Positions 2,943-64,000 of a stretch of 64,000 bases of DNA are shown in pieces. The position numbers were made by a program, and so were the translations under genes. Source of the stretch: Candidatus Binatia bacterium (GTDB taxonomy: Bacteria; Desulfobacterota; Binatia; HRBIN30); the NCBI GenBank assembly GCA_050015455.1, contig JBEKBJ010000009.1:8508-72507 (forward strand). Reading direction: 5' to 3'. The notes under the pieces were generated by a model. That model made no database searches and was not told the origin of the DNA. It saw only the letters and a program-made list of their open reading frames with translations. Every line of letters begins with the position of its first letter. Within the stretch, counting starts at the first letter, position 1.

Positions 2943-3360
2943 ATCATGGACGACCTCACGCTAGACCTTGCGCCGCCACGCATCGTCCCTGTCGCGAGGT
3001 CACCGGCGGCACCTTGAGTCACCGCCCCTTTGGGACGTTCGGGACTGTTTGGCCGTGAATGCTTGCTGTTGTGATTGCTGGCTCTCTCAAACATTCATAG
3101 GATTGGATACACGTTGACTTTTTCCCTTGTCGATGGCAATTTAACACGCTAGTGTCTCTGCTTTTGGAGGTGAGGTGCAAGGGCAAGGCGGCAGAGGGTG
3201 AATGAAGTCCACTTGCAGTCTGGCGCGGGCGGTACGCGAAGGCGGCGACATGGGGCACGAGGTGGTGCGGATGGTGGGGTATTTTCGGTGGTTGAGGGCT
3301 AGCGAATTGCGTGCGCTGCATCACACGAGGCCGAATCGAGCGTGGACAGAGGAGAAATGT

Positions 3361-6312: not shown

Positions 6313-6368
6313 AACGGATGCGTCGGCAAGATGATCAGACGAATTACCACCCCGCTACAGGAGGGAAT

Positions 6369-7595
6369 ATGAGCATGGATAGGGTAGCATTCGCACCAGG
6401 ACCGCACGCGTACGTCTCGATTAGGCCATTCCTTGTCGCGGTGCTCGCACTGGTGATAGGTTCGGTTGCCGGCGAAGCTCAGCAGGTTCCCACTCTGTCG
6501 GTGGGGAATGGAACCGGGGGCTCGGGCGGCAGCGTGCCGATCGTAATCGGCATCAGTGACGTAACCGGACAGAACGTCGGATCCGCCACCGTTGACGTCC
6601 TCTTCGATAATACGAATCTCATCCTCGCGAACCCGGCGCAGGACTGCGTTCCGAGCGTGGGTAGCGATTTCAGCGCGTCGGCAAGCATTGCAACGACCCC
6701 GGCGCCACCGGCGGGAGAAAGTCGGCTGCGCCTTGGCGTATTCAATATCAAATTCGGTTCCACCCAGACGGTTGAGGACGGGCCGCTGTTCACATGCACC
6801 TTTCAGATTTCGCCCGGAGTGACTCCTCCTGCGAGCTTCACGCTGACCCCAGATCCGGATTCGCCCGAGACTCAAGTTGCGCAAATCGGAGGCGCCGTTC
6901 TTTGCAGCGGCCCGCAGACGCCTTGTGATACCACGCCTGGCCAGATCACGGTGGCTGAGGCCACGGTGACGCCAACGCCCGTGACAACGTGCGTCTACCA
7001 GAGTGACTGTCCGGGGCTGATCTGCCAAAGCGGGGTATGCACCGTGGTCCCATGTACCACGACCGCGGACTGCCCGATCGGCATATGCTCCAACAATAAT
7101 GTGTGCACGGGCCAGCCTTGCAACACCAGCGGTGATTGCCCGCCGAGTCAGGTCTGCCTCAACCAGGTGTGTTCGCAGGTGCAGTGCACCAATGGTACCG
7201 GGTGTCCCTCCGACGCGATCTGCCTCGATGGGACTTGTGTTGCAGCCCCCGCACCAACAGCGACCGAGACGCCGACCTTGATACCGACGAGCACTTCGCT
7301 GCCGACGGGCACGCCGACTCCGCTGCCGACGGGCACGCCGACTCCGCTGCCGACGAATACGCCGACTCCGCTGCCGACGAATACGCCGACTCCCACCGCG
7401 TCACAGACCGCGACGGCCACGCCGAGAGCCACCGACACGGCCTCGCCGGTGCCGAGCGCGACGAACACGGGCGTAGTGCCGGCGCCAAGCTCCGCCGATA
7501 ATGATGGGTGCAACATGTCGCAGTCGGGCTCAGGGGGCGCGCTGCTGTGGTTGCTGGTCCCTGCCGCTCTCATGGTGTACCGCCGGCGAAGGTAG
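6369..7595 (+). CDS. Cell-surface 'anchor' protein: signal peptide, cohesin-like domain, Cys-rich mini-modules, Pro/Thr linker and a C-terminal MYXO-CTERM-like sorting signal
   Basis: The track ORF 6303..7595 overlaps the upstream gene by 10 nt. I take ATG 6369 as the start, preceded by CAGGAGGGAAT. The N-terminal region (VPTLSVGNGTGGSGGSVPIVIGISDVTGQNVGSATVDVLFDNTNLIL) fits a cohesin-like pattern. Repeated CxxxxxCPxGxCxxxxC modules follow, then the PTGTPTPL linker. The protein ends DGCNMSQSGSGGALLWLLVPAALMVYRRRR*. Confidence 0.7.
   Translation: MSMDRVAFAPGPHAYVSIRPFLVAVLALVIGSVAGEAQQVPTLSVGNGTGGSGGSVPIVIGISDVTGQNVGSATVDVLFDNTNLILANPAQDCVPSVGSDFSASASIATTPAPPAGESRLRLGVFNIKFGSTQTVEDGPLFTCTFQISPGVTPPASFTLTPDPDSPETQVAQIGGAVLCSGPQTPCDTTPGQITVAEATVTPTPVTTCVYQSDCPGLICQSGVCTVVPCTTTADCPIGICSNNNVCTGQPCNTSGDCPPSQVCLNQVCSQVQCTNGTGCPSDAICLDGTCVAAPAPTATETPTLIPTSTSLPTGTPTPLPTGTPTPLPTNTPTPLPTNTPTPTASQTATATPRATDTASPVPSATNTGVVPAPSSADNDGCNMSQSGSGGALLWLLVPAALMVYRRRR
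6486..6960 (+). other. Cohesin-like domain of the anchor protein
   Basis: Motifs as described for the anchor protein; assigned by eye. Confidence 0.4.
7303..7398 (+). repeat. Four 24-bp tandem repeats encoding the P-T-G/N-T-P-T-P-L linker
   Basis: Four units of gccgacg(g/a)(g/a)(c/t)acgccgactccgct are visible in the sequence. Confidence 0.8.
7488..7595 (+). other. MYXO-CTERM-like C-terminal sorting/anchor signal (GC motif, hydrophobic helix, RRRR, stop)
   Basis: The tail has a conserved Gly-Cys, an ~18-residue hydrophobic stretch (ALLWLLVPAALMVY) and four terminal Arg. From memory this matches the MYXO-CTERM (TIGR03901-type) architecture. Confidence 0.55.
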
Positions 7596-9362: not shown

Positions 9363-9466
9363 TGCGCGCACTTAGGTGGTGCGGAGAGCAGCCCGGCCCC
9401 TGAGTGTTGGGACGAAGGCACTAGGAGCCAGTGAGCAGGGAAGGTCGACTGGAAAGGAGGAGGGCA

Positions 9467-10612
9467 ATGCGAACGGTGAAGTGGAACGCTTTACTCTCAT
9501 GCCTCTGCGGACTCGCGGTGGTGTTGGGAGGCGTGGCGGTTAGCGCTCGAGCTGACGTCACGACGGAAAAGGGGGCATCGATCCTCATCTTTCCCAAGGT
9601 GCGCGCCGACGGCACGTTCGATACCATCATTCAAATTGCGAACACCAGTAACAGCATGAGGTATCTACAGTGCTTCTACGTGAACGCGTCCTTGCTGGAC
9701 TCGCTCACGCATTTGCCGTGCACGGTCCCCAGCGCCACCTGCGTACCGCAGTGCCAGGAGACGGATTTCACCATTTGGCTCACTAAGCAGCAGCCAACAC
9801 ATTGGAGCGTGAGCGAAGGCCGCTATTTCAATCCCAATGCGGGATTCGGCACTTATGATTCGGGCTTCGTGCCTGGTCACATCCCGCCGGTGACCGACTT
9901 CGTCGGCGAGCTGAAGTGCATCGAGGTGGATGCTTCCGGCAATCCGTCCATCTCCAACAGTCTAAAGGGTGAGGCCACCCTCGTCTCGCTTGTGACCGGG
10001 GGGGGCAGTACCTTGAGCTCTAATCTCACCGCTGAAGGCGATGTCGCCAAGTATAACGCGATCGGCATCCAAGGTAACCCGGACGTCGCGCCGGTGAATC
10101 CGCTCTTGCTCGACGGGGGCGCGACGTACAATGCCTGTCCAGCCAAGCTGATCTTGAACCACTTCACCAGTGGCGCGCCCGACATTGTCGTGAGCGAGCT
10201 CACTACCGATACGTCGGCAGAGTTCACCGACTTGACGCTGGTGCCGTGCAACGAAGACTTCGAGAATCAAATCCCGAAATCGGTGACCGTGCAGTTCCTC
10301 GTTTACAATGAGTTCGAAGAGAGATACTCGACGAGCATCACAGTCTCTTGCTTTTTGGAGACCGAACTTGCCAACATCGGCCAGGTGTTCACATACGGGT
10401 TTCTCGGCACGGAGGTGGCGCAGGCCATCATCACTCCGGTCGTGCAGGCCGATGGCTCTTCCGGCGGCCTGGTAGGCATCGCGGAACGGATCACCACTGT
10501 TGAGGTAGCGTCGCCGGCGACGGCGGCACGTGCGGCGTACAACCTGCACAGCGAAGGCAGCTTCATTCCTCCGATTGGGCCGGACCAGATCACGCTGCCG
10601 GCAGAGCAGTGA
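9467..10612 (+). CDS. Secreted Cys-containing protein of an unrecognised family (paralog A of a tandem pair)
   Basis: The start MRTVKWN follows GAAAGGAGGAGGGCA. A signal peptide ends ...AVSARA. Blocks shared with paralog B include FPK, CFYV, ETDF..LT..QP..W.VS.G, GELKC.EV, LKGEAT, YNA.GIQ, YN.CP..LIL.HF, LTLVPC.EDF and VQ(F/Y)LVYNEFE.R(Y/F)STS....CF.E. Confidence 0.7.
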   Translation: MRTVKWNALLSCLCGLAVVLGGVAVSARADVTTEKGASILIFPKVRADGTFDTIIQIANTSNSMRYLQCFYVNASLLDSLTHLPCTVPSATCVPQCQETDFTIWLTKQQPTHWSVSEGRYFNPNAGFGTYDSGFVPGHIPPVTDFVGELKCIEVDASGNPSISNSLKGEATLVSLVTGGGSTLSSNLTAEGDVAKYNAIGIQGNPDVAPVNPLLLDGGATYNACPAKLILNHFTSGAPDIVVSELTTDTSAEFTDLTLVPCNEDFENQIPKSVTVQFLVYNEFEERYSTSITVSCFLETELANIGQVFTYGFLGTEVAQAIITPVVQADGSSGGLVGIAERITTVEVASPATAARAAYNLHSEGSFIPPIGPDQITLPAEQ

Positions 10613-10684
10613 TCGCTGGCACAGAGGCAAAGAGGGGAAAAGGCAGTGGCTGGTTTCTCCCTGATAGGTGAAAGGAGAAGGGCA

Positions 10685-11971
10685 ATGCGTACGGTGAAGT
10701 GGAATCCTTTTCTCTCGGGTGTAGCGATGCTCCTGGGAGGGGTGCTCCTATGGGCGGGTGCTGCGCACGCCGATATCTCGTCGACTAACCCGGCGGCGAT
10801 CGTGGTGTTCCCGAAAATAGTGGTCGATACGGGCGCTGTGATATCGGACGCGAAAATCGACACCGTCATTCAACTGACCAATACCGCCCCCCAGGCGGTG
10901 AACGTGCGGTGCTTCTACGTCGACGCCAACGGGCACTGCTCGAACGCCCCGACTGCATTCTGCGATCCGGGCCAGCCGGCGAGCGACTACTGTAGCAGCC
11001 CCGGCTATTGCATACCGGGCTGGGTGGAGACTGATTTCTCTTTCCAGCTGACGGCCAATCAGCCGCTCGTGTGGACAGTGTCTGCAGGCTTGGCCGGCGG
11101 AGACTTTCCACTCGCCTCGTTGCCAGGTATAGGCGGTGAGCTCAACACCGGCAGCATCCCGCAGGCGGCTGAGGATCCGATGCTCGGCGAGCTGAAATGC
11201 GTCGAGGTCGGCGATGACGAGATGCCGGTCGATACGAACGACCTCAAGGGCGAAGCGACAATAGAGCTCCTGACCGGGGTAAATATCGACATCGAGGGCT
11301 ACAACGCCGTCGGCATCCAGGCGATCCCAGGGAGCTGCAGCGGCGACTCCTCGATATCGTGCACCGCCGATACGGACTGCCAGCCGCCGGCAACGAGTGC
11401 TGATGACACGCCGTGCATACACGTGAACAATTTTGACAACACTCTGGTGATCGGCGGGCCGAACGCGGAGTACAACGGTTGCCCGAACACCCTCATCCTT
11501 GACCACTTCTTCGATGACGCGCCGGTGCTTGGGAGCAACGTCGATACGTGGCTCACGTTGGTGCCGTGCTCGGAGGACTTCTTCACACAGACCTGCGTCA
11601 CAACCACCGTGCAGTATCTGGTGTACAATGAATTCGAGCAGCGCTTCTCGACCAGCCGGCCGCTGACGTGCTTTAGCGAGTTGCAGCTTTCGGACATCGA
11701 TACGCGTCTTGGCAACGACCCGCCGAACAACTACACCTCGATCTTCAATGTCAATGTTGAGGGGACGCTGACGGGGCAGACGGTTATCCGTGGTGTCGCC
11801 GATTCCGACCCTACCATAACGCCTGGACACGGTCTGCTCGGGGTCGTACATGAGTTCCACCAGCTGAACGGCGGATCGGCCCCCGTCTTCTCCGCTGCGT
11901 ATATGCTGGATCTGAGTGGCTCACGGACGCAGGCCGACATCGTGCTGATGCCGCCGCCTTCGCCACAGTAA
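10685..11971 (+). CDS. Secreted Cys-rich protein of an unrecognised family (paralog B, with inserted Cys-rich loops)
   Basis: The start context (GAAAGGAGAAGGGCAATGCGTACGGTGAAGTGGAA) is nearly identical to paralog A at the nucleotide level. A signal peptide is present, and the conserved blocks are the same as in paralog A. Confidence 0.7.
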   Translation: MRTVKWNPFLSGVAMLLGGVLLWAGAAHADISSTNPAAIVVFPKIVVDTGAVISDAKIDTVIQLTNTAPQAVNVRCFYVDANGHCSNAPTAFCDPGQPASDYCSSPGYCIPGWVETDFSFQLTANQPLVWTVSAGLAGGDFPLASLPGIGGELNTGSIPQAAEDPMLGELKCVEVGDDEMPVDTNDLKGEATIELLTGVNIDIEGYNAVGIQAIPGSCSGDSSISCTADTDCQPPATSADDTPCIHVNNFDNTLVIGGPNAEYNGCPNTLILDHFFDDAPVLGSNVDTWLTLVPCSEDFFTQTCVTTTVQYLVYNEFEQRFSTSRPLTCFSELQLSDIDTRLGNDPPNNYTSIFNVNVEGTLTGQTVIRGVADSDPTITPGHGLLGVVHEFHQLNGGSAPVFSAAYMLDLSGSRTQADIVLMPPPSPQ

Positions 11972-55747: not shown

Positions 55748-55991
55748 GAAAGGGCAAGGCAGTACTCGCAACGGACGCGACAGCCACGGCCAACGCCGCG
55801 GCGTGAAGGTCTTTGCGGGACAGTTTGCGAAAGCCGGCAACATCCTCGTGCGCCAGGTCGGGACGCGGGTGCACCCGGGCAAGAACGTCGGTATGGGCCG
55901 CGATTTCACGCTGTTTGCCAAGATCGACGGCATCGTTAGCTACGAGCGCGTTGGCAAGGACCGCCGTCAGGCCCACATCTTTCCAGCATAG
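55737..55991 (+). CDS. rpmA: 50S ribosomal protein L27
   Basis: [23 protein letters not shown]... matches the canonical L27. Confidence 0.9.
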
Positions 55992-56111
55992 CTGCATTTG
56001 TCATGCCCGCGAAAGCGGGCGTCCAAGCGCAGGCGGCGCCCTCCAGGTCGAAGCGCGGGCTCGCCGCTTTCCTTTTCGGGGTGTCGTCGCTAACCTCCGC
56101 TAGCAGGCGAG

Positions 56112-56201
56112 ATGAAATTCATCGATGAAGCCGAAGTCGACGTGCGAGCCGGCGACGGCGGGCGCGGGTCTCCTCTTGGACAGGGGACAGGGCGAAGGTG
56201 A
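56112..56201 (+). pseudogene. obg: Remnant of the Obg GTPase gene (first ~19 codons recognisable, then stop after 29 codons)
   Basis: MKFIDEAEVDVRAGDGGRGS matches the invariant Obg N-terminus (MKFVDE..I.V.AGDGG.G), then diverges to PLGQGTGRR*. It sits at the canonical rplU-rpmA-obg-proB position, immediately before proB. Confidence 0.45.
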
Positions 56202-56210
56202 GGGCCTGCG

Positions 56211-57389
56211 GTGAGTAGCCAAGCGTCCTCCAGCTTGCACCTCACGCACAAGCAGCGCCTGCTCAAGCGCGTCCGCCGCGCTGTCATCAAGATCGGCAGC
56301 AGCATCCTCTCCGGCCAGACCGGCATCAATCGCCTGCGGCTGCGCTCGCTGGCAGAAGAGATCTGCGCCCTGCACCAACGCGGCGTAGAGTTGGTGGTGG
56401 TGAGTTCGGGCGCGGTCGCGGCCGGGATGGCCCGCCTCGGTGTGACGGAACGCCCGAAGAGCATGCCGCAACGACAAGCCGCGGCGGCCGTCGGGCAGAT
56501 CGATCTGATGGCGCTGTACAAAGAGTACTTCGCGCTGCACGCGACGCAGGTGGCGCAGATACTCCTGACCCACGACGACCTGGCGGACCGCAGTCGCTAT
56601 CTCAACGCGCGGCACACCATCGAGACCCTAATCGCGGCTGGCGTAGTGCCCGTAGCCAACGAAAACGACACGGTCGTGATCGACGAACTGATGAGGAATT
56701 TTGGCGATAACGACAACCTCTCTGCGCTGATTGCTGGCCTGGTAGAAGGGGACCTTTTGGTGCTGCTGAGTGATGTTGCTGGACTGTATACGGAAGATCC
56801 GCACGCACATCCCGACGCCCAACTGGTGGCGGTGGTCGAGGATGCCAGCCGGGCCGCTGCCTCCTGTGCCATGGACGGGCGCGGCGCGCTCGGCACCGGC
56901 GGGATGGCATCGAAGTTCGCGGCCGCCAGAAAGGCGGCGGCGGCCGGCATCCCGACCGTCATTGCCGACGGACTGCACGCCGGAGTGCTGCCGGCGGTGT
57001 TCGACCCTCGCCAGGCAGTGGGTACACTCATCCTGCCCAGAGGCGACCGGCTGGCTCGGCGCAAGCACTGGATCGCGTACACGCTGAAGCCCGCCGGCAC
57101 GCTCATCGTCGATCAAGGCGCGTTCGAGGCGATCGTGCAGAAGGGGCGCAGTCTGTTGCCGAAGGGCCTGAAGGAAGTGCAGGGGAAGTTCGGCAGCGGC
57201 GAGTGCGTCCGCTGCGTCGATCTATCCGGCCGTGAGTTCGCGCGTGGCCTGGTGAACTACAGTGCCGGCGATCTGGAGAAGATCAAGGGCGCCCATTCGG
57301 CGCGCATCGAGAGCATCCTCGGTTACCAGCTCACCGACGAAGTCATCCACCGCAATGATCTCGTCCTGACCGGCAGTCCGGAGTCCTGA
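56211..57389 (+). CDS. proB: Glutamate 5-kinase with a C-terminal PUA domain
   Basis: The amino-acid-kinase fold motifs VIKIGSS ... VVVSSGAVAAG are present, and a PUA-like domain lies at the C-terminus. Confidence 0.9.
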   Translation: MSSQASSSLHLTHKQRLLKRVRRAVIKIGSSILSGQTGINRLRLRSLAEEICALHQRGVELVVVSSGAVAAGMARLGVTERPKSMPQRQAAAAVGQIDLMALYKEYFALHATQVAQILLTHDDLADRSRYLNARHTIETLIAAGVVPVANENDTVVIDELMRNFGDNDNLSALIAGLVEGDLLVLLSDVAGLYTEDPHAHPDAQLVAVVEDASRAAASCAMDGRGALGTGGMASKFAAARKAAAAGIPTVIADGLHAGVLPAVFDPRQAVGTLILPRGDRLARRKHWIAYTLKPAGTLIVDQGAFEAIVQKGRSLLPKGLKEVQGKFGSGECVRCVDLSGREFARGLVNYSAGDLEKIKGAHSARIESILGYQLTDEVIHRNDLVLTGSPES

Positions 57390-57446
57390 GCGCCGTGTCC
57401 TGAAGGGGAATCACCGGTCAGGCCGTGAACCGTGTGGGGGGGGGCG

Positions 57447-58100
57447 TTACATGACCCGCAGACCGGCAATCTTCACCGCTCCACGATGGTAGCCCGAAGG
57501 GAACAGCTTTTCGAGCTCGTCGATCTCCATCCCGCACTTGGTACAGGTTTCAAGTACCGTGGGCACAATACCGGTGCGGGCGTGCTCGTCCCGTAAGAAA
57601 TGAATGACCTGCCGGTGTGCCTCCGTAAGCTGGCCGGCGATGCCCAACTCGGCGGCTTTGCCGGCGGCGAACCTCTCGTCCCACTCGGACGGGTCCCGCA
57701 GAAAACCCATGGCGTTCACCCGGTAAGTCTTCTCCTGGATGCCTCCGGCGCGGGCTGGCTCAGCCGTTGTGACCCGTGGTTCGGTCGTCACTCCCTCCAG
57801 ATAGGTCAGACCGGCCAGCTTGCAGGCTCCCCGCAGGTAGCCGGTCGGAAAGAGACGTCCCAGATCGGCGAGCTTCAAGTTGTTCTGCCGGCAGGTCTGG
57901 TAAACCAGGGGGCAGCGACCGGTCTCTTTTGCGGCGGCGCGCAGAAAGCGAATCACCTTCCAGTGCTCTTCCGTCAAACCCTCCGACATCCCGAGTTTGA
58001 GGGCCATTCCCCGGGCAAAGTTTTCGTCCCATTGTTCGGGAGCGACGAGAAAGCCCAAAATATCCGTCTCATAAGTTTTGCCGCCGTACTGAAATTCCAT
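57447..58100 (-). CDS. Tandem-duplicated DsrC/TusE-family protein lacking the C-terminal sulfur-accepting cysteines
   Basis: Two ~105-aa repeats are each collinear with TusE/DsrC (GKxYETD.LGFL..P.QWDE.FA...A...G..LTE.HW.VI.FLR .... LFP.GY.RGA.K.AGL). They end ...LEG and ...LRVM, with no penultimate Cys. Confidence 0.7.
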   Translation of the reverse strand: MEFQYGGKTYETDILGFLVAPEQWDENFARGMALKLGMSEGLTEEHWKVIRFLRAAAKETGRCPLVYQTCRQNNLKLADLGRLFPTGYLRGACKLAGLTYLEGVTTEPRVTTAEPARAGGIQEKTYRVNAMGFLRDPSEWDERFAAGKAAELGIAGQLTEAHRQVIHFLRDEHARTGIVPTVLETCTKCGMEIDELEKLFPSGYHRGAVKIAGLRVM

Positions 58101-58151
58101 GTCAGCCTCCTGGGGGAAGTGTTCTTGTTTCGTTCATCGGGTCCCAAGCCG

Positions 58152-59327
58152 TCAGGCGCGTTCACGGATCCGAGCCACCGCCTCCAGGGCCGCATCCACT
58201 TCAGCCTCGGTGGTCGAGTATCCCAGGGAAAAACGCACGGTCCCGAAAGGCATGGTCCCGATGGTCCGGTGAGCCCCCGGTGCGCAATGGAGGCCGGTGC
58301 GGGTCAGAACCCCGAAACGCACATCCAGGAGGAAACCGACGTCAGTCGGCTCCATGCCATCCACGGTGATCGAGACGATGCTCACGGCTCGGTCGGCCTC
58401 CTCAGGACCGTAGACCCGCACGTAGGGGATCGCGCGCAAGCCGTCGCGGAAACGCCGCCACAAAGCCATCTCGTGGGCACGCACTGACTCTACGCCCCGC
58501 GCGAGGAGGAACTCCACACCCGCCTTGAGGCCGGCCAGACCATGGCCGTTGAGGGTACCGGCCTCGAATCTGTCGGGGAGGAATCCAGGTTGTCTGTCCG
58601 ATTCGGACACCGTGCCGGTGCCGCCTCGTTTGAACGGTTGAATGCGGGGGGCAACGTCGGGATGGACCACCAACCCTCCGGTCCCCTGCGGCCCGAGCAG
58701 AGACTTGTGGCCGGTGAAGGCCAAAACGCTCAAACCCAACTCCTGAAAGTTGACGGGATAGGCCCCGCATATCTGGGCCGCATCAACAATGAAGGGGATT
58801 TTGCGGCTGCGGCAAGCCCGCGCCACCGGTTCGATCTCCTGAAGGCTCCCCATGACGTTGCTGGCCCAGACCATGACCACGAACTGGGTGTCGTCCCTAA
58901 GGGCCTGGATGATCTCGTGGCTATCGCACAACCCCCGTTCATCAGCGGGCACGGTAATGATCCTGCACCCGTACCGCTCGCGTAGGTCCGCCAACGGGCG
59001 ACGCACGGAGTTGTGCTCGAGCATTGTGGTAACGATGCTCCCCCCGGGCTCGGCCAGGCCATAGATGGCCAGGTTGAGCGCCTCGGTCGCGTTGAGCCCG
59101 AAACAGACCCATTCGGGGGCACCGGCCCCCAGCAGCCTGGCGAGAGCCTCCCTGACCCCGTCAAGGAGTTCCGCAGATTCGATGCTCTTGCGGTGGGAGC
59201 TGCGCCCTCCTGAGCCGCCGATCTCCCGGGCAAAGGAGTCCATGGCGGCGTAGACCGACTCTGGCTTGGGAAAACTGGTGGCGGCGTTGTCCAGGTAAAT
59301 GACCTGGTCGTTTCCCTCGTGACTCAT
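58152..59327 (-). CDS. Class-V aminotransferase / cysteine desulfurase-like (SufS/CsdA-type)
   Basis: The PLP-Lys context TGHKSLLGPQGTGGL and the active-site-like RTGLHCAPG near the C-terminus are present. The start is ATG 59327, or alternatively GTG 59360. Confidence 0.7.
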   Translation of the reverse strand: MSHEGNDQVIYLDNAATSFPKPESVYAAMDSFAREIGGSGGRSSHRKSIESAELLDGVREALARLLGAGAPEWVCFGLNATEALNLAIYGLAEPGGSIVTTMLEHNSVRRPLADLRERYGCRIITVPADERGLCDSHEIIQALRDDTQFVVMVWASNVMGSLQEIEPVARACRSRKIPFIVDAAQICGAYPVNFQELGLSVLAFTGHKSLLGPQGTGGLVVHPDVAPRIQPFKRGGTGTVSESDRQPGFLPDRFEAGTLNGHGLAGLKAGVEFLLARGVESVRAHEMALWRRFRDGLRAIPYVRVYGPEEADRAVSIVSITVDGMEPTDVGFLLDVRFGVLTRTGLHCAPGAHRTIGTMPFGTVRFSLGYSTTEAEVDAALEAVARIRERA

Positions 59328-59364
59328 GGATTTGGCTTCTTCTCCTTTATGAAAGGACACTACT

Positions 59365-59751
59365 CTACGAGCCCAGATGCTGCTTGACCATGGTCAGCAT
59401 CTTCTCCCTATCTACGGGCTTCGACAGGTAGCCCTCGGGCGGCGGCACCTGCCGGCGGGTAGAGATGAACCTCTCGAACTCCGTGGAGATGCCGGTAACG
59501 ATGATAATTGGAATGCTCTTCCACTTCTCGCTCTCTTTCATGTCCCGGTAGAACCTGACGCCGCTCTTGTGGGGCATGGTGATGTCCAGGGTGATGAGGT
59601 CTGGAGGGCTGGCCTTGACCTTTTCGAGTGCCTGATCGCCGTCCTCCGCTGCAACGGTGTCGTACCCGGCGTCCCCGAACAGTGTGCTGAGGTACGTGAC
59701 GGTATCGGGCTCGTCTTCAACGATCAGGATAGTCTTCTTATTTTCGGCCAT
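59365..59751 (-). CDS. Stand-alone response-regulator receiver domain (CheY-like)
   Basis: ILIVEDEPD ... DLITLDITMP ... IIIVTG ... LSKP. Confidence 0.8.
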   Translation of the reverse strand: MAENKKTILIVEDEPDTVTYLSTLFGDAGYDTVAAEDGDQALEKVKASPPDLITLDITMPHKSGVRFYRDMKESEKWKSIPIIIVTGISTEFERFISTRRQVPPPEGYLSKPVDREKMLTMVKQHLGS

Positions 59752-59829
59752 GTTTGTCTCTTCCTTCAGTCTGGGGAGACCCTCACCCGGGGTGCTCCGT
59801 GGGTTTTCGCAAGGCTACCGCATCGATGT

Positions 59830-60234
59830 TCAAGTATCCAGGAGGCGGAGCAACGCCTCCGCGTCCACGGGCTTTCCCAGCACGGCATCGGGTCCCCGAA
59901 TGCCCTTGTGAAAGGAGAGGTAGGATTTGCCGTAGTCTTCCAAGACCCGGTCATTGCCCGTAACCACGATCACCATGAGGTTGCTCCAGCGCGGACTGCT
60001 GCGCAACTTAACCAGCAGGTCCAGCCCCGACCTGCCCGGCATCAACACATCCATGATCACCGTATCGGCCGGGAATTCCTCGAGCTGGGAGAGAGCTTCC
60101 ACCTCGTCTTCCGCGGCGCGCACCTCGTATCCCTTGTCCTCCAGCAGCACCGACAGATAGAACGCCGTGTCCCGGTCGTCGTCCACCACGAGGACTCTCC
60201 CTCTTCCAGTGGATACGCCAGACATGCTGCTCAC
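59830..60234 (-). CDS. Stand-alone response-regulator receiver domain (CheY-like), paralogous to the neighbouring one
   Basis: VLVVDDDRD ... DTVIMDVLMP ... IVVTGN ... LGKP, starting at GTG. Confidence 0.8.
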   Translation of the reverse strand: MSSMSGVSTGRGRVLVVDDDRDTAFYLSVLLEDKGYEVRAAEDEVEALSQLEEFPADTVIMDVLMPGRSGLDLLVKLRSSPRWSNLMVIVVTGNDRVLEDYGKSYLSFHKGIRGPDAVLGKPVDAEALLRLLDT

Positions 60235-60253
60235 CCTGGTTGTCTTCCGTCGC

Positions 60254-61723
60254 CTATTGTTCGCAGGCGCTCGGCTCGTCCACCAACGGGACGCTCGGGC
60301 GCGCTTCGAGAGGAAAGCGTACCAGGAACCGACTGCCGCGCTGCGGCTCCGAACTCACGTCGATGCGGCCGCCGTGTTTGCCAACGATCTTGTTCGCGAT
60401 GAACAGGCCGAGGCCGGTTCCCTTGATTCCCTTGGAGGTGAAGAACAGGGAAAAGATCTTCTCCCGCGTCTCGCGGTCCATGCCTATGCCGTTGTCCTCC
60501 ACGTCGAAGGTCATGAAGGGGGGCTCGCGGCCAACGTTCACTCTCACGAAGTGCTGGTCTTTACGCCGGTCGGCACGGCAGGCGTCCAGAGAGTTCTCGA
60601 CGATGTTCAACAGCACGGCTCGCACCGCCATCGCGTCGCCAGCGAACGTGCCAGCGTCGGGGGCGACGTCGATGGTCAGCTCCGTGTCGATGTCGCTGGC
60701 CTTCTTCTGCAAACCGTTCTCCAGGTCCGCGAACAGCTCGGCAGGGTTGACGTCGACCAGCGAAAGCTCTCGGTCCTTGGCATAGTAGAGGATGTCCATC
60801 ACCATGCTGCGGATACGGTCGACGTTGCGCTGGACCATTTCCCAGCCTCTTTCAATCCGGGCTCGATCGTCACTGGCGAAGCCCGAGTTGACGAGGTAGA
60901 TGCCGCCATCCAAGCCCATGAGCAAGCCCTTGATCCCGTGTGAGATCGAGCCCACGAGCAGGCCGATTGAGGTGAGCTGCGACTGCAACTGCCGGATCTC
61001 CGTGATGTCGGCGGACATCTCGATGACGGCCTCGGGCTTGCCTTCGGAGTTGAAGATCGGCGCGGTCGTGGCCAGCACGTTGATCCTCTCTCCCGCGGCC
61101 GAGGTCACGACCTCCTCGGTGCTCCGGCACTGGCCGTCCTCCAGGGTCAGCCGGGCGGCGCACACCAGGCAAGGCTCCTCGCGGTGCTTGTAAACCTTGT
61201 AGCAGTAGTTCCCCACCGCCGGCCCGAAGGTCTCGCGAAAGCGCCGGTTGGCGTTTCGGATCATCAGGTCCTGGCCCTGCACGGAGATGTAGCACGGGAC
61301 CTCCTCGAAGAGCTGAGCAAAGTGCTCCTGGCTGCGCTGCAGGAGGTTCTGGAGTCTCTTGAACTCGTCGATCACTGTGAGCATCTCCATGACCGACACG
61401 ATGTTGCCACCTTCGTCGCAACAAAAGGGCGTAGTATGCACCAGGACGTGCCTTTGCTTGCCGTGTCGCGTGAGCAGGAGTTGCTCGTTCGAGTGACTCT
61501 TCCCGTCTGTGAAGGTCATCTCGACGGGGCAGTTCTCACACACATCTTCTCGCTGCTTGTACACGCGGTAACAGAAGTCGCCGATGATGCGCTCGCCGAA
61601 GTCCGTGCGAACGCGGCGGTTGGCATCGATGATGCGGAAGTCCCGGCCGTGGACGGACAAGTAGCAAGGCATCTCCTCGAAGTACTGCTCGTAAGTAATG
61701 ATCGTGGGAATTCGATCGTCCAT
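60254..61723 (-). CDS. Cytoplasmic PAS-domain sensor histidine kinase (two PAS/PAC-like repeats, HisKA, HATPase)
   Basis: A duplicated ~120-aa segment contains conserved Cys pairs (CYLSVHGRDF.I.DANRR ... CENCPV / CYISVQGQDLMIRNANRR ... CLVCAA). The H-box is ISHGIKGLL, and the ATPase G-boxes are DNGIGM...GTGLGL. The start is ATG 61723. Confidence 0.8.
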   Translation of the reverse strand: MDDRIPTIITYEQYFEEMPCYLSVHGRDFRIIDANRRVRTDFGERIIGDFCYRVYKQREDVCENCPVEMTFTDGKSHSNEQLLLTRHGKQRHVLVHTTPFCCDEGGNIVSVMEMLTVIDEFKRLQNLLQRSQEHFAQLFEEVPCYISVQGQDLMIRNANRRFRETFGPAVGNYCYKVYKHREEPCLVCAARLTLEDGQCRSTEEVVTSAAGERINVLATTAPIFNSEGKPEAVIEMSADITEIRQLQSQLTSIGLLVGSISHGIKGLLMGLDGGIYLVNSGFASDDRARIERGWEMVQRNVDRIRSMVMDILYYAKDRELSLVDVNPAELFADLENGLQKKASDIDTELTIDVAPDAGTFAGDAMAVRAVLLNIVENSLDACRADRRKDQHFVRVNVGREPPFMTFDVEDNGIGMDRETREKIFSLFFTSKGIKGTGLGLFIANKIVGKHGGRIDVSSEPQRGSRFLVRFPLEARPSVPLVDEPSACEQ

Positions 61724-61912
61724 GCTGTCCTCCCGCGGTGCCAGCATGTGGTGCTGGCCGAGCATGCGCCGGTGTTCCCTCCCCGGCCGGGCAGGCGGAG
61801 CACCCGGCGTCAGGCCATCAGCCTCGGGGGTGTGGCTTCATCATAATCCTCGAAATACTCGAACACCTCGCGAACAGCCGTGCGCCTTCGCTTTGCCCCG
61901 GCGCAGAGCGCC

Positions 61913-63661
61913 CTACTCCTTTTTGTCCCGCAGCTCGAGGATCCGGTGCACCCCAGTGACCAGATCCTCGGGGCTCACCGGCTTGTTCATGTAGCCGTCG
62001 GGCTTCTCGGCGTGAGCGGCGTAGATCACCTCGCGGAACTCCGGGTGCCCGGTGACCACGCAGATCAACATCGCCGTGGTGTCCGGGCTACCGCGAAGCT
62101 CCCGGAAGACCTCGACACCATCCTTGCCCGGCATGGAGATATCCAGAGTGATGAGGTCCGGCTTCTCCTTTCCTGCCAGCTCGATGGCCTGGTCGCCGTC
62201 CGTGGCCTCGATGATCGTGGCGCCGGCATCCGCGAGCACGGTGCTGATGAAGGTGCGGGCATCGTCCTCGTCGTCGACGACCAGGATTTTCCGGCCCTGG
62301 AGGGGCAGCCCGGGTTCCGGCTTCGCGGCGGCTTTTTTCCTGCTCACGGCACACTCCTCCAACACCAGCGCTCCCGCCACAAGGTCTACCAGTTGCACCA
62401 CCTTGCAATCAAGCTTGTAGTGCCTGATGACATCCGTGAGACCGTCGACGCAATTGTGGCACGAGGTGACGACGATCTTGGCGCCGGTGGCCGCGATCTG
62501 GTCTGCCTTAACCCTCGCCGACTTCAGGCGACGAGGCGTGTACTCGGACATCGACATGGCGCCGCCGCCACCCGTGCAGCAGTAGTTTTCGGTGCGGTTG
62601 GGGTGCATCTCGCGGAAATCGCTGACCACCATGTTCAGAAGCTCTCGAGGCTCTTCGTAGAATCCGCAGCTGCGAGCGTTGTTGCACGAGTCGTGGAAGG
62701 TGACCGGGATGGAATTCCTGGTCTTGTCCACCTTGATCCGACCTTCCCTGATGTAGCGGATCATGGTGACCACCGAGCTTTCCATGACGAAGTCCTGATC
62801 TGTTCCCGACCAATTCGGTCCTTCGCAGCGAGTCGATCGGTAGCCATGGCCGCACTCGGAGATCACCAGGCGCTTGCCCCGCAGTTCTTTGAATTTCTCC
62901 TCCAGGTGCTTCCAAGAGGCCGCGCCCATGGCATCATCGCCGGAGAAAAGTCCGAAATTCGTCTGATCCCAGCCCCAGGAGGGCATGGTCCAGTTCTCGT
63001 CCGCGGCGTAGAAGATCAAGGCGGCGTTGTTGATCGTGCGCGGGTCGTACTTCGCCTCACGTGGGTTGATTGTATAGACGACCTCAGCGTCCAGCTTGTC
63101 GACCGGGATCGCCGCCTGCTCGTCGCCTCCCACCTGGTCCACGAGCTCTTCCGAGACCCACTCCAGAGTCTCTATGTAGTCCTCCTCGAGCACCCCCATC
63201 TGGTTGCCGATCTCCCAGGTGTCTTTGCTGACCACTCGGACACCTTCCGGCATCACGCCAACCCGGGTCAGCAGGCCGCGCATGATCCGGTTGAGGGTGG
63301 CGGTGTCCACGCCCATCGGGCAGTTGAACGTGCAGCGCCGACAGTTGGTGCAAGTCCCGAAGGCGATGTCTTTGAGTTTATCCAGATCCTCATCCGTCAC
63401 GGGGGGATAGGCATTGACCCACCGGGGAAACACCCGGCCGGTCCAGTCGAAATGCCGCTTGAAGATTTTGCGCAACTGATCCGCCTTGTACGAGGGCGTC
63501 ATCTTGGGATCGTCGGGATGGGTCAAAACGTAATGACAGGCCTCGTTGCACATGCCGCAATGCACACAACCAACCAACGAACCCACTACCTGGCGCGTTA
63601 GCTTGGGCGCCAGCAGCTCCACCATCTTGTCGACTTTGTACGACCTGTTCTGATCGGCCAT
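61913..63661 (-). CDS. HdrD/DsrK/GlpC-family Fe-S oxidoreductase (two ferredoxin-type 4Fe-4S motifs and two CCG domains) fused to a C-terminal response-regulator receiver domain
   Basis: The ferredoxin motifs are CVHCGMCNEAC and CTNCRRCTFNCP. The CCG-type Cys clusters are ...CCTGGGG... and ...SCHNC... The C-terminal ~125 aa form a canonical REC domain (ILVVDDEDD ... DLITLDISMP ... VVTG ... NKP). ATG 63661 is preceded by AAGGAGG, and the upstream gene's TGA lies inside the RBS. Confidence 0.75.
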   Translation of the reverse strand: MADQNRSYKVDKMVELLAPKLTRQVVGSLVGCVHCGMCNEACHYVLTHPDDPKMTPSYKADQLRKIFKRHFDWTGRVFPRWVNAYPPVTDEDLDKLKDIAFGTCTNCRRCTFNCPMGVDTATLNRIMRGLLTRVGVMPEGVRVVSKDTWEIGNQMGVLEEDYIETLEWVSEELVDQVGGDEQAAIPVDKLDAEVVYTINPREAKYDPRTINNAALIFYAADENWTMPSWGWDQTNFGLFSGDDAMGAASWKHLEEKFKELRGKRLVISECGHGYRSTRCEGPNWSGTDQDFVMESSVVTMIRYIREGRIKVDKTRNSIPVTFHDSCNNARSCGFYEEPRELLNMVVSDFREMHPNRTENYCCTGGGGAMSMSEYTPRRLKSARVKADQIAATGAKIVVTSCHNCVDGLTDVIRHYKLDCKVVQLVDLVAGALVLEECAVSRKKAAAKPEPGLPLQGRKILVVDDEDDARTFISTVLADAGATIIEATDGDQAIELAGKEKPDLITLDISMPGKDGVEVFRELRGSPDTTAMLICVVTGHPEFREVIYAAHAEKPDGYMNKPVSPEDLVTGVHRILELRDKKE

Positions 63662-63672
63662 GGTTTCCTCCT

Positions 63673-64000
63673 TCAACCCCTGGCAACCGCCGGTGGCATG
63701 CTCCCCCGGTGGCCCAAAGTGCGGCCGATCCAGTACCGCGTGAAGGGGTAGTACAGGTAATGAGAGATTTTCGAGAATGGAACGTAGATCAGGAAGAAGC
63801 TGGTGGCAAAAAGATAGGCCACCCAGTAGCCTTCACCCTTCAACAACCCAGCCGTGTGAGCCGCGGCTGCAACGCCCACCCCGAACCAGATCGTCAAGGT
63901 AATCAAAGAAAAGTAATCGTCCGGTGTGCTGATGAGGCGTAGGACCGGCCTGGCGAAACGGCGTATGCCCCGGCCCACCGCCACCACGAAGGCGGCACCT
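63673..64000 (-). CDS. Integral membrane protein, 3' part only. It may be the NarI/HdrE/DsrM-type membrane partner of the HdrD-like protein.
   Basis: The frame is open to the end of the window. It contains hydrophobic helices with His residues (AAAAHTAGLL, SKISHYLYYP). The stop overlaps the RBS of the downstream Fe-S gene. Confidence 0.4.
   Translation of the reverse strand, partial: GAAFVVAVGRGIRRFARPVLRLISTPDDYFSLITLTIWFGVGVAAAAHTAGLLKGEGYWVAYLFATSFFLIYVPFSKISHYLYYPFTRYWIGRTLGHRGSMPPAVARG

Follow-up and report, generated by a model that had tools for sequence, protein, structure and literature searches.

We analysed a window of 64,000 nucleotides from Candidatus Binatia bacterium (GenBank assembly GCA_050015455.1, contig JBEKBJ010000009.1, positions 8,508 to 72,507), in which seven open reading frames (ORFs), all on the minus strand, run from position 57447 to the window end. 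One of them encodes an iron-sulfur (Fe-S) protein, of a type with which sulfate reducers reduce disulfides in proteins, that ends in a response regulator receiver (REC) domain, hereafter Fe-S::REC, and stands between the genes for a membrane anchor and a soluble histidine kinase with two cysteine-rich PAS domains. The cassette to which these genes belong is real, strongly conserved, widespread and uncharacterised. Our preferred reading, which we hold with slightly less than even confidence, is that it encodes a quinone-linked oxidoreductase for thiols/disulfides in which the catalytic subunit doubles as a response regulator, under the control of a PAS kinase that probably contains Fe-S. The pairing of Fe-S::REC with this kinase suggests an undescribed link of respiratory electron flow with cell signalling.

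A receiver domain fused to a DsrK-type iron-sulfur protein

Fe-S::REC (582 amino acids; 61913-63661, minus strand, as are all the window genes of the cassette) is matched by Pfam and NCBIfam models for two 4Fe-4S ferredoxin motifs, a CCG domain and Response_reg. Its catalytic domain (residues 1-450, 62311..63661) holds two CX2CX2CX3C motifs, an SECGH cysteine and one CCG motif. The ferredoxin motifs (C32/35/38/42 and C104/107/110/114, with Fer4_8 and Fer4_17 matches) are invariant in 19 sequences. The single CCG motif, C326-x34-C361C362-x38-C401xxC404, in which the tripeptide is CCT followed by GGGG, is likewise invariant and accounts for the one match of PF02754, at residues 325-409. What would be the first CCG domain is reduced to C270, the cysteine of an invariant ISECGHG sequence, plus C279. 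One CCG motif together with a conserved T/GECGH cysteine that is thought to be catalytic forms the signature of the DsrK/HmcF/TmcB class, whereas HdrD and HdrB have two CCG motifs (PMC10861901). The HdrD-type enzyme with two CCG domains that the original prediction, made from the letters of the window, had described is thus ruled out, as only one CCG motif is complete; its DsrK-like character and two ferredoxin motifs stand, and the conservation of the cluster ligands, a point that the prediction had singled out for checking, holds throughout the alignment.

The best NCBIfam matches of the protein are HmcF (321 bits), TmcB (296 bits) and DsrK (235 bits), against equivalog cut-offs of 750, 735 and 400 bits, respectively, and its motifs place the Fe-S part with the DsrK/HmcF/TmcB type, in a separate clade outside those equivalogs. 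The top fold match of this part in the PDB is EtfD of M. smegmatis (9ojn; Foldseek E 1.2e-10 over 406 columns, phmmer 1.1e-12). In an AlphaFold2 (AF2) model of the whole of Fe-S::REC (mean predicted local distance difference test score, pLDDT, 71.6), the CCG half and the receiver are modelled well and the cofactor-dependent ferredoxin half poorly.

The remainder of the protein (residues 451-582, 61913..62310) consists of a variable linker and the receiver, which scores 76.6 bits against PF00072 (cut-off 30.2). Its phospho-acceptor D507 is invariant, as are D464 and K560; D463 and T537 are conserved in at least 90% of sequences, and the alpha4 segment GHPEF..IY..P.GY..KP is invariant. The receiver model (pLDDT 85-94) superposes on PhoP, PhoB and CheY with TM-scores of 0.83-0.93, normalised to the target.

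The fusion recurs in independent assemblies across phyla

A search of 5.8 billion proteins returned 3029 matches (protein clusters) to Fe-S::REC. The best 120 of these are 69-97% identical to it and nearly all are full-length with the receiver, the exceptions being truncated entries such as P0031; the database names of the matches are "response regulator" or "Fe-S oxidoreductase/CheY-like". When one genome per GTDB species was scanned, 465 species representatives had relatives. The best 80 of the 465 span query residues ~1-580 including the receiver, except for one fragment (L078), and share the same Fe-S/REC junction in independent assemblies; they belong to metagenome-assembled genomes (MAGs) assigned to Acidobacteriota, Myxococcota, Planctomycetota, Syntrophales, Zixibacteria, Ignavibacteria, Calditrichota and Gammaproteobacteria. 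Identity is 65-78% for the cassette across phyla and 65-97% for the architecture overall.

An assembly chimera or a frameshift that joined an Fe-S gene to a receiver gene would have weakened the original prediction, which had itself asked for this check. We reject such an artefact as having a negligible chance, since the identical Fe-S::REC sequence is present on 10 contigs from several sources and the architecture, with the same junction, recurs in the 3029 clusters and the best 80 GTDB loci. Nor is the system rare, as hundreds of MAGs carry it under the bland label "response regulator". In our searches of open-access papers and bioRxiv, no fusion of a receiver with a CCG/DsrK/Hdr-type protein was found described, and the earlier remark had likewise been that no description of the combination had been seen.

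When 15 billion proteins are reduced to representatives at 50% identity, the form with the receiver makes up essentially one full-length cluster (P0432, 55% identical), and the nearest full-length relatives that lack the receiver are at most 43% identical. Two relatives, P0437 (549 amino acids, 43% identical) and P0516 (a 268-residue fragment, 58% identical over the CCG region), carry in the place of the receiver a DsrC-like domain without CysA, the penultimate cysteine of DsrC. By their sequences, this Fe-S clade appears to bear the receiver and the DsrC-like domain as alternatives.

A predicted cytochrome-b-like membrane partner

The gene ahead of Fe-S::REC (63673->64000) leaves the window, which holds the C-terminal 108 amino acids of a 230-residue protein matched by the NCBIfam models HmcE (E 1.2e-9) and TmcC (E 4.4e-9). 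A full-length orthologue aligns with the HmcE profile from end to end, at 47.7 bits, far short of the cut-off of 275, and hydropathy gives the protein of about 230 residues about five hydrophobic segments, as in NarI. We predict it to be a cytochrome-b-like membrane protein and a distant relative of HmcE/TmcC. In P0447 (670 amino acids), a relative, the anchor is fused to the Fe-S protein, which supports the anchor and the Fe-S subunit forming a complex.

A soluble kinase with cysteine-rich PAS domains and two free receivers

Downstream of Fe-S::REC, the kinase gene (60254..61765) encodes a protein for which Pfam and NCBIfam matches give the order PAS(Cys4)-PAS(Cys4)-DHp(H276)-HATPase and in which there is no transmembrane segment, just as the predicted soluble double-PAS kinase would have it. 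Its true start is likely the ATG at 61723, giving 489 amino acids, which is also the length of the NCBI version. The HATPase_c domain scores 81.9 bits; the Pfam HisKA model finds no match in the protein, and H276, the phospho-acceptor, is invariant in an S-H-G-I-K-G box. An AF2 model (mean pLDDT 83, both PAS domains above 90) has the ordinary PAS-PAS-DHp-CA fold seen in NifL, HK853 and WalK, and a fold search yielded only generic PAS histidine kinase matches.

What sets the kinase apart are its cysteines. In 71 orthologues, C65/C76/C79 of the first PAS domain and C158/C188/C199/C202 of the second are 100% conserved, C34 is conserved in 77%, and the PAS cysteines are invariant also in a further alignment (A2). 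The AF2 model places them at the first strand and in the Ealpha/Falpha region, where PAS cofactors bind. In OrpR of Desulfovibrio vulgaris, a PAS [4Fe-4S] cluster held by C-x8-C-x3-C senses redox potential. As the PAS cysteines of the kinase are conserved and the OrpR cluster is bound in the corresponding part of its PAS domain, it is reasonable to suppose by analogy that the kinase holds Fe-S or some other redox-active metal.

The kinase gene is followed by two single-domain receivers, RECa (59830..60234; PF00072 70.4 bits) and RECb (59365..59751; PF00072 81.3 bits). They are the sole receiver paralogues of the fused domain within the 64-kb window, at 30% (RECa) and 42% (RECb) identity, as the original prediction had supposed of these neighbours. 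RECb, the closer of the two, shares an EF.R.I..PPPEGY..KP motif with the fused receiver. The nearest family of RECb is DVU0259/DivK (NF045717), the model of which it matches with 112 bits, compared with 72.4 bits for the fused receiver and 57.4 bits for RECa, all below the cut-off of 160.

A conserved cassette within a predicted nine-gene operon

To separate conserved from local genes, we surveyed synteny by ORF calling and BLAST in 81 non-redundant loci, with counts taken over the loci that had enough flank, together with the neighbourhoods of five relatives. The anchor is present in 66/66 related loci, and the kinase adjoins Fe-S::REC in 72 of 75. At least one free receiver is encoded in 63/69 loci (RECa-type only in 28, RECb-type only in 26, two receivers in 9), and in 37 of the 69 the gene next after the kinase is of the RECa type. 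A Macro gene lies directly upstream of the anchor in every one of the 66 loci with sufficient flank. An Rrf2 gene is found upstream in 34/66 loci and downstream in some others, and a canonical DsrC gene upstream in 5/66. The Rrf2 protein of the cassette has three invariant cysteines. By this comparison of gene orders, the conserved unit is (Rrf2 or DsrC)-Macro-anchor-Fe-S::REC-double Cys4-PAS kinase-one or two free receivers.

On a contig of the same organism that encodes the identical protein (L092), Rrf2, Macro and anchor genes stand ahead of the genes found in the window, separated by gaps of 2-52 base pairs (bp). Since Rrf2, Macro and the full anchor lie upstream there, the operon here has nine genes, of which the window holds the distal seven, and we infer from the arrangement that they are co-transcribed. 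The original prediction had counted seven co-oriented genes beginning with the membrane protein and had recommended reading the sequence beyond the window end. The co-orientation is as described; the extent is not, as Rrf2 and Macro precede the membrane gene. On L092 the Macro protein (L092:3392-3919) has 175 amino acids, matches PF01661 and resembles ADP-ribose-binding proteins or O-acetyl-ADP-ribose deacetylases. No sirtuin or ADP-ribosyltransferase was found near the Macro gene.

The spacing of the genes in the window is less uniform than the tiny gaps first reported. Fe-S::REC starts at ATG 63661, and the TGA of the membrane gene falls within TGAAGGAGGAAACCATG, where it overlaps the AGGAGG ribosome-binding site (RBS) of the Fe-S gene, an overlap that had been correctly noticed. 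Between the Fe-S gene and the kinase there are, however, 147-190 bp, depending on the start codon of the kinase. The reported 4-bp gap between RECb and the desulfurase requires a GTG start (58152-59360); with the ATG start chosen by the gene callers (58152..59327, 391 amino acids, RBS AAGGAG) the gap is 37 bp. Promoter and terminator scans of the locus gave nothing better than shuffled controls, with no terminator-like site between genes, and an Rfam scan of 57000-64000 gave nothing credible. NCBI labels the proteins "response regulator", "PAS domain-containing sensor histidine kinase" and "TusE/DsrC/DsvC family sulfur relay protein".

All-versus-all clustering of the ORFs in the 81 loci showed three kinds of recurrent neighbour besides the core, and no others: another DsrMK-like pair in 23 loci, a sigma-54 activator resembling OrpR in 13, and DsrO/DsrP-like genes in 8-12. 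The activator gene lies within a few kb of the cassette (e.g. L008:6800-8458, minus strand), and its product has a PAS motif of the OrpR type, C-x8-C-x3-C. In a relative with 87% identity (L086:1189-7993), the cassette is flanked by genes of the oxidative stress response, for a Fur-family regulator, desulfoferrodoxin, rubrerythrin, ferritin and glutathione peroxidase, and that locus also encodes another Rrf2 protein together with a ferredoxin-like one.

The desulfurase and the tandem DsrC-like gene are local additions

Two genes downstream of RECb had given the locus its original sulfur theme. The protein encoded at 58152..59327 belongs to the cysteine desulfurase family (TIGR01977, 426.9 bits against a cut-off of 377), aligns over its full length with solved desulfurases and keeps FTGHK, with the pyridoxal phosphate (PLP) lysine, and R.G.HCA/RTGLHCA, with the catalytic cysteine. 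It had been called SufS-like; the family is upheld but not the subfamily, the SufS model scoring 245.6 bits against 475. The last gene (57447..58100) encodes a tandem DsrC/TusE-fold protein, matched twice by PF04358 (139 bits for the two DsrC domains) and by TIGR03342 (97.1 bits, cut-off 53.5). In DsrC, the AGLPKPTGC motif forms the flexible C-terminal arm that bears the penultimate CysA. The alignment of the tandem protein to solved DsrC stops at GACKLAGL, without the PKPTGC arm, as domain 1 ends in ...GACKLAGLTYLEG and domain 2 in ...GAVKIAGLRVM*, so that CysA is missing from both. Without that arm the protein is RspA-like, and neither DsrC nor TusE. It is not, however, the Cys-less protein that had been described, since it has five cysteines; across its family, C70 and C186 never vary, and C93, at the position of CysB, is kept in at least 90% of members.

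The tandem family, of about 217 amino acids, is widespread, and no typical genomic partner emerged for it among its mixed contexts (LysR with aprBA-qmo; OsmC with methyltransferases). Its second DsrC domain in the window (residues 157-191, 57526-57630) gives a marginal match to the LexA winged-helix DNA-binding domain, just above the cut-off (24.9 against 23.7 bits), in keeping with the helix-turn-helix-like segment that the DsrC fold contains, and the protein may thus be regulatory.

Neither gene is part of the conserved unit. The desulfurase is present in 0/81 related loci, and L001 is the single locus with a tandem DsrC-like gene near the cassette; there, the gene is convergent and part of a dsrC-dsrM-dsrK-like operon. 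A syntenic relative, L084, has an Fe-S::REC that is 93% identical and the same flanking proB-rpmA-rplU-plsX genes, yet it lacks RECb, the desulfurase and the DsrC-like gene; these three were added recently and are specific to the lineage. Synteny over the related loci thus excludes the desulfurase and the DsrC-like gene as core parts, and the seven-gene sulfur operon is not an evolutionary unit. In L084, two small unannotated ORFs take the place of the three genes. L084 also has obg (L084:15895-17235), which is absent between rpmA and proB both in the window (55991-56211) and on L092.

A link to sulfur survives elsewhere, in the DsrC-like fusions of the nearest relatives without a receiver and in loci of the Syntrophales type, where the cassette begins not with Rrf2 but with a canonical DsrC that has two cysteines (…GACKLAGLSKPTGCV). 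Canonical DsrC genes head the cassette at L033:7989-8327, L054:7697-8035, L064:8006-8326, L072:5686-6021, L077:8061-8399 and L063:2-256, and in the Syntrophales-type loci DsrMK-, DsrO- and DsrP-like genes come after the receiver. In a Thermoanaerobaculia MAG (L003/L027:1-8135) the cassette stands directly downstream of aprBA-like, qmoABC-like and sat genes.

At the other end of the window, five long plus-strand ORFs (6-2942, 3202-6312, 6303-7595, 9431-10612 and 10646-11971) matched nothing in Pfam at E<=1e-5 and could either lie on the wrong strand of this high-GC sequence or encode genuine large proteins that lack annotation.

Proposed mechanism and alternatives

From gene content, motifs, conservation and synteny we infer the cofactors, the direction of signalling and the substrate as follows. 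The anchor and the Fe-S subunit would form a two-subunit module, like HmcEF, TmcBC and DsrMK, between the quinone pool and a cytoplasmic thiol/disulfide substrate, which electrons would meet at a noncubane [4Fe-4S] cluster and the ECGH cysteine; where DsrC is present, the substrate may be of the DsrC type. In DsrMK, the electron path runs from menadiol through heme b and the noncubane cluster to the DsrC trisulfide (PMC10861901). The soluble kinase would sense the cytoplasmic redox state through cofactors on the four cysteines of each PAS domain, probably Fe-S clusters by analogy with OrpR and NreB, and would phosphorylate D507 of the fused receiver as well as the free receivers, which may be branches or sinks. 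The enzyme complex would then be the output of the two-component system, with phosphorylation gating its activity, assembly or partner binding. This is the simplest reading because the receiver is fused to the enzyme, its phospho-residues and alpha4 face are kept, and the receivers have no output domains. Because none of the receivers has a DNA-binding domain, the Fe-S-type Rrf2 could act as the transcriptional arm, and in the Binatia lineage the DsrC-like protein would plausibly be a docking partner or substrate of the Fe-S subunit. The broader proposition is that the cassette defines a widespread two-component class, in hundreds of species and at least eight phyla, where the catalytic subunit of a quinone-linked oxidoreductase anchored in the membrane serves as the response regulator, and in which phosphorylation gates electron flow to thiols or DsrC-type carriers or, alternatively, the state of the quinone pool is wired into an Fe-S PAS kinase. 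We offer this tentatively, as a possibility open to considerable doubt.

A number of observations weigh against an oxidoreductase under kinase control. The Fe-S protein misses all three equivalog cut-offs by a wide margin, so its substrate may differ, and its best structural match, EtfD, is an enzyme that links electron transfer flavoprotein (ETF) to quinone rather than a disulfide reductase. In the anchor, which the Pfam NarI model does not detect, H89 and H202 are the only invariant histidines, so that a NarI-like dihaem arrangement is not assured and at most one bis-His haem is. The AF2 model of the fusion is of low confidence in the ferredoxin domain and offers no reliable view of contacts between the receiver and the enzyme. 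The spacing of the kinase PAS cysteines, C-x10-C-x2-C plus a distal cysteine, is unlike that in OrpR and NreB, and the site could instead bind Zn or form disulfides. Every model of the cassette leaves the universal Macro gene unexplained, and all members of the Fe-S::REC family come from MAGs. For Binatia in particular, a DsrC-type substrate is doubtful because the window genes are of an aerobic heterotrophic type (2-oxoglutarate dehydrogenase, methylmalonyl-CoA mutase, propionyl-CoA carboxylase) and no dissimilatory sulfur gene was found among the 20 large window ORFs tested.

The direction of signalling might also be reversed. The anchor and Fe-S protein would then be a quinone-pool sensor that relays quinol electrons to the PAS cysteines or clusters of the kinase, with the fused receiver docking the soluble kinase and providing feedback and the free receivers passing the signal on, an enzyme-mediated analogue of ArcB/RegB. 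That a soluble kinase is encoded beside a membrane-linked redox module in 72/75 loci, that each PAS domain has four conserved cysteines including a CxxC, and that CCG sites carry out thiol/disulfide chemistry are all in keeping with this, and the free receivers in 63/69 loci are hard to square with the enzyme as the only output. Receivers normally control the domain to which they are fused, however, and the invariant phospho-acceptor set and alpha4 face argue that phosphorylation of the receiver matters to the enzyme. The Cys4 pattern also resembles a cluster or metal site more than a substrate disulfide, and the canonical DsrC genes and DsrC-like fusions indicate partners of the DsrC type, not a kinase. 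We regard a sensor of this kind as the main rival, though an unlikely one. A persulfide relay, as first envisaged for the locus, has a much smaller probability. Here the desulfurase would make a persulfide, the DsrC-like protein would carry or sense it, and Fe-S::REC would reduce it under phospho-control. The desulfurase keeps its PLP lysine and catalytic cysteine, the DsrC-like protein has conserved cysteines of its own, the co-oriented distal genes are 37-51 bp apart with no predicted terminator, and related Fe-S proteins are fused to DsrC-like domains. Such a relay is nonetheless hard to reconcile with a desulfurase that is absent from all 81 loci, a tandem DsrC-like gene found once and convergent, and a 93%-identical syntenic relative without either gene; tandem DsrC-like genes occur in unrelated contexts elsewhere, and the sulfur-carrying CysA is absent. 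It is at most a local elaboration in the Binatia lineage, not the function of the cassette. We give a similarly small chance to an ordinary quinone-linked enzyme of respiration or metabolism that is regulated solely by transcription, through Rrf2, and whose receiver is a phosphate sink or a vestige. An Rrf2 with three invariant cysteines is frequent in the cassette, and Hmc of D. vulgaris is transcriptionally regulated by rrf1 and rrf2; but a vestige would not keep all its catalytic residues and its alpha4 surface at 65-97% identity across phyla, and the kinase is co-conserved in 72/75 loci.

Significance and comparison with known systems

Research on anaerobic energy metabolism still asks with what HmcEF/TmcBC/DsrMK-type complexes interact in the cytoplasm and how they are regulated; the literature describes the cytoplasmic partner of Hmc and Tmc as "not known". 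A receiver on the catalytic subunit, beside a Cys-rich PAS kinase, offers an experimental handle on how such complexes are switched, and it would extend the outputs of two-component systems from DNA binding and second-messenger enzymes to a respiratory-type redox enzyme. The cassette occurs in abundant uncultured lineages (Acidobacteriota, Myxococcota, Planctomycetota, Binatia, Syntrophales, Zixibacteria), where its recognition would aid the interpretation of MAGs. If the mechanism is correct, the co-encoded Macro protein, which may bind or hydrolyse ADP-ribose, would represent a third, unexplored layer of regulation.

The closest described arrangement is the tail of the hmc operon of D. vulgaris Hildenborough, hmcE (DVU_0532), hmcF (DVU_0531), rrf1 (DVU_0530, a CheY-like receiver) and rrf2, in which both rrf genes regulate hmc. 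Judged by gene arrangement, Fe-S::REC resembles hmcF and rrf1 joined in a Rosetta-stone fusion, in an operon that also includes rrf2, and the cassette would give concrete form to what genetics showed long ago, the control of hmc by rrf1 and rrf2. Unlike hmc, the cassette of the window has no periplasmic cytochrome c, HmcB, HmcC or HmcD; its receiver is joined covalently to the Fe-S subunit, it has a Cys4-PAS kinase and a Macro gene of its own, and most of its hosts are not known to reduce sulfate. TmcB and TmcC rank second among the matches of the two subunits (for TmcB, 296 bits where the cut-off is 735), but the cassette lacks the TmcA cytochrome c3 and TmcD, and in Desulfovibrio the receiver is unfused. 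There, the receivers that compare best are of the DVU0259 family, NF045717 being the best match of RECb (112 against 160 bits) and of the fused receivers of relatives. Locus-tag numbering would put DVU_0259 a few genes from tmcA-D (DVU_0263-0266), and our search of open-access papers and bioRxiv found nothing on DVU0258-0260.

With DsrMK(JOP), the menaquinol:DsrC-trisulfide oxidoreductase, Fe-S::REC and its anchor share, by their motifs, two predicted cubane clusters, one CCG motif and the ECGH cysteine, and the anchor would correspond to the membrane cytochrome b partner. They differ in that the last CCG cysteine of the window protein is Cys rather than Asp, in the fused receiver, in a DsrK score of 235 bits against 400, and in that most cassette loci, Binatia included, have no canonical DsrC nearby. 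HdrED and HdrB have the CCG-domain fold and noncubane chemistry in common with the window protein, but two CCG motifs and two noncubane clusters where it has one. Mycobacterial EtfD (9ojn; 21% identity) is also a CCG Fe-S protein, membrane-bound and linked to quinone; unlike the window protein, it is a single polypeptide with its own membrane domain, takes electrons from ETF and has no receiver. The RspA-like DsrC proteins share the DsrC fold without the AGLPKPTGC arm, as well as a helix-turn-helix-like segment, and the tandem protein of the window differs from them in its two domains and its family-specific C70/C93/C186.

On the signalling side, OrpR and NreB share with the kinase conserved cysteines in the PAS core, which in the kinase are spaced differently and occur twice, each time as C-x10-C-x2-C plus a distal cysteine. 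ArcB and RegB are quinone-linked kinases that couple the state of the quinone pool to phosphotransfer; the kinase of the cassette, by contrast, is soluble, and any link to quinone would come from a separate enzyme complex.

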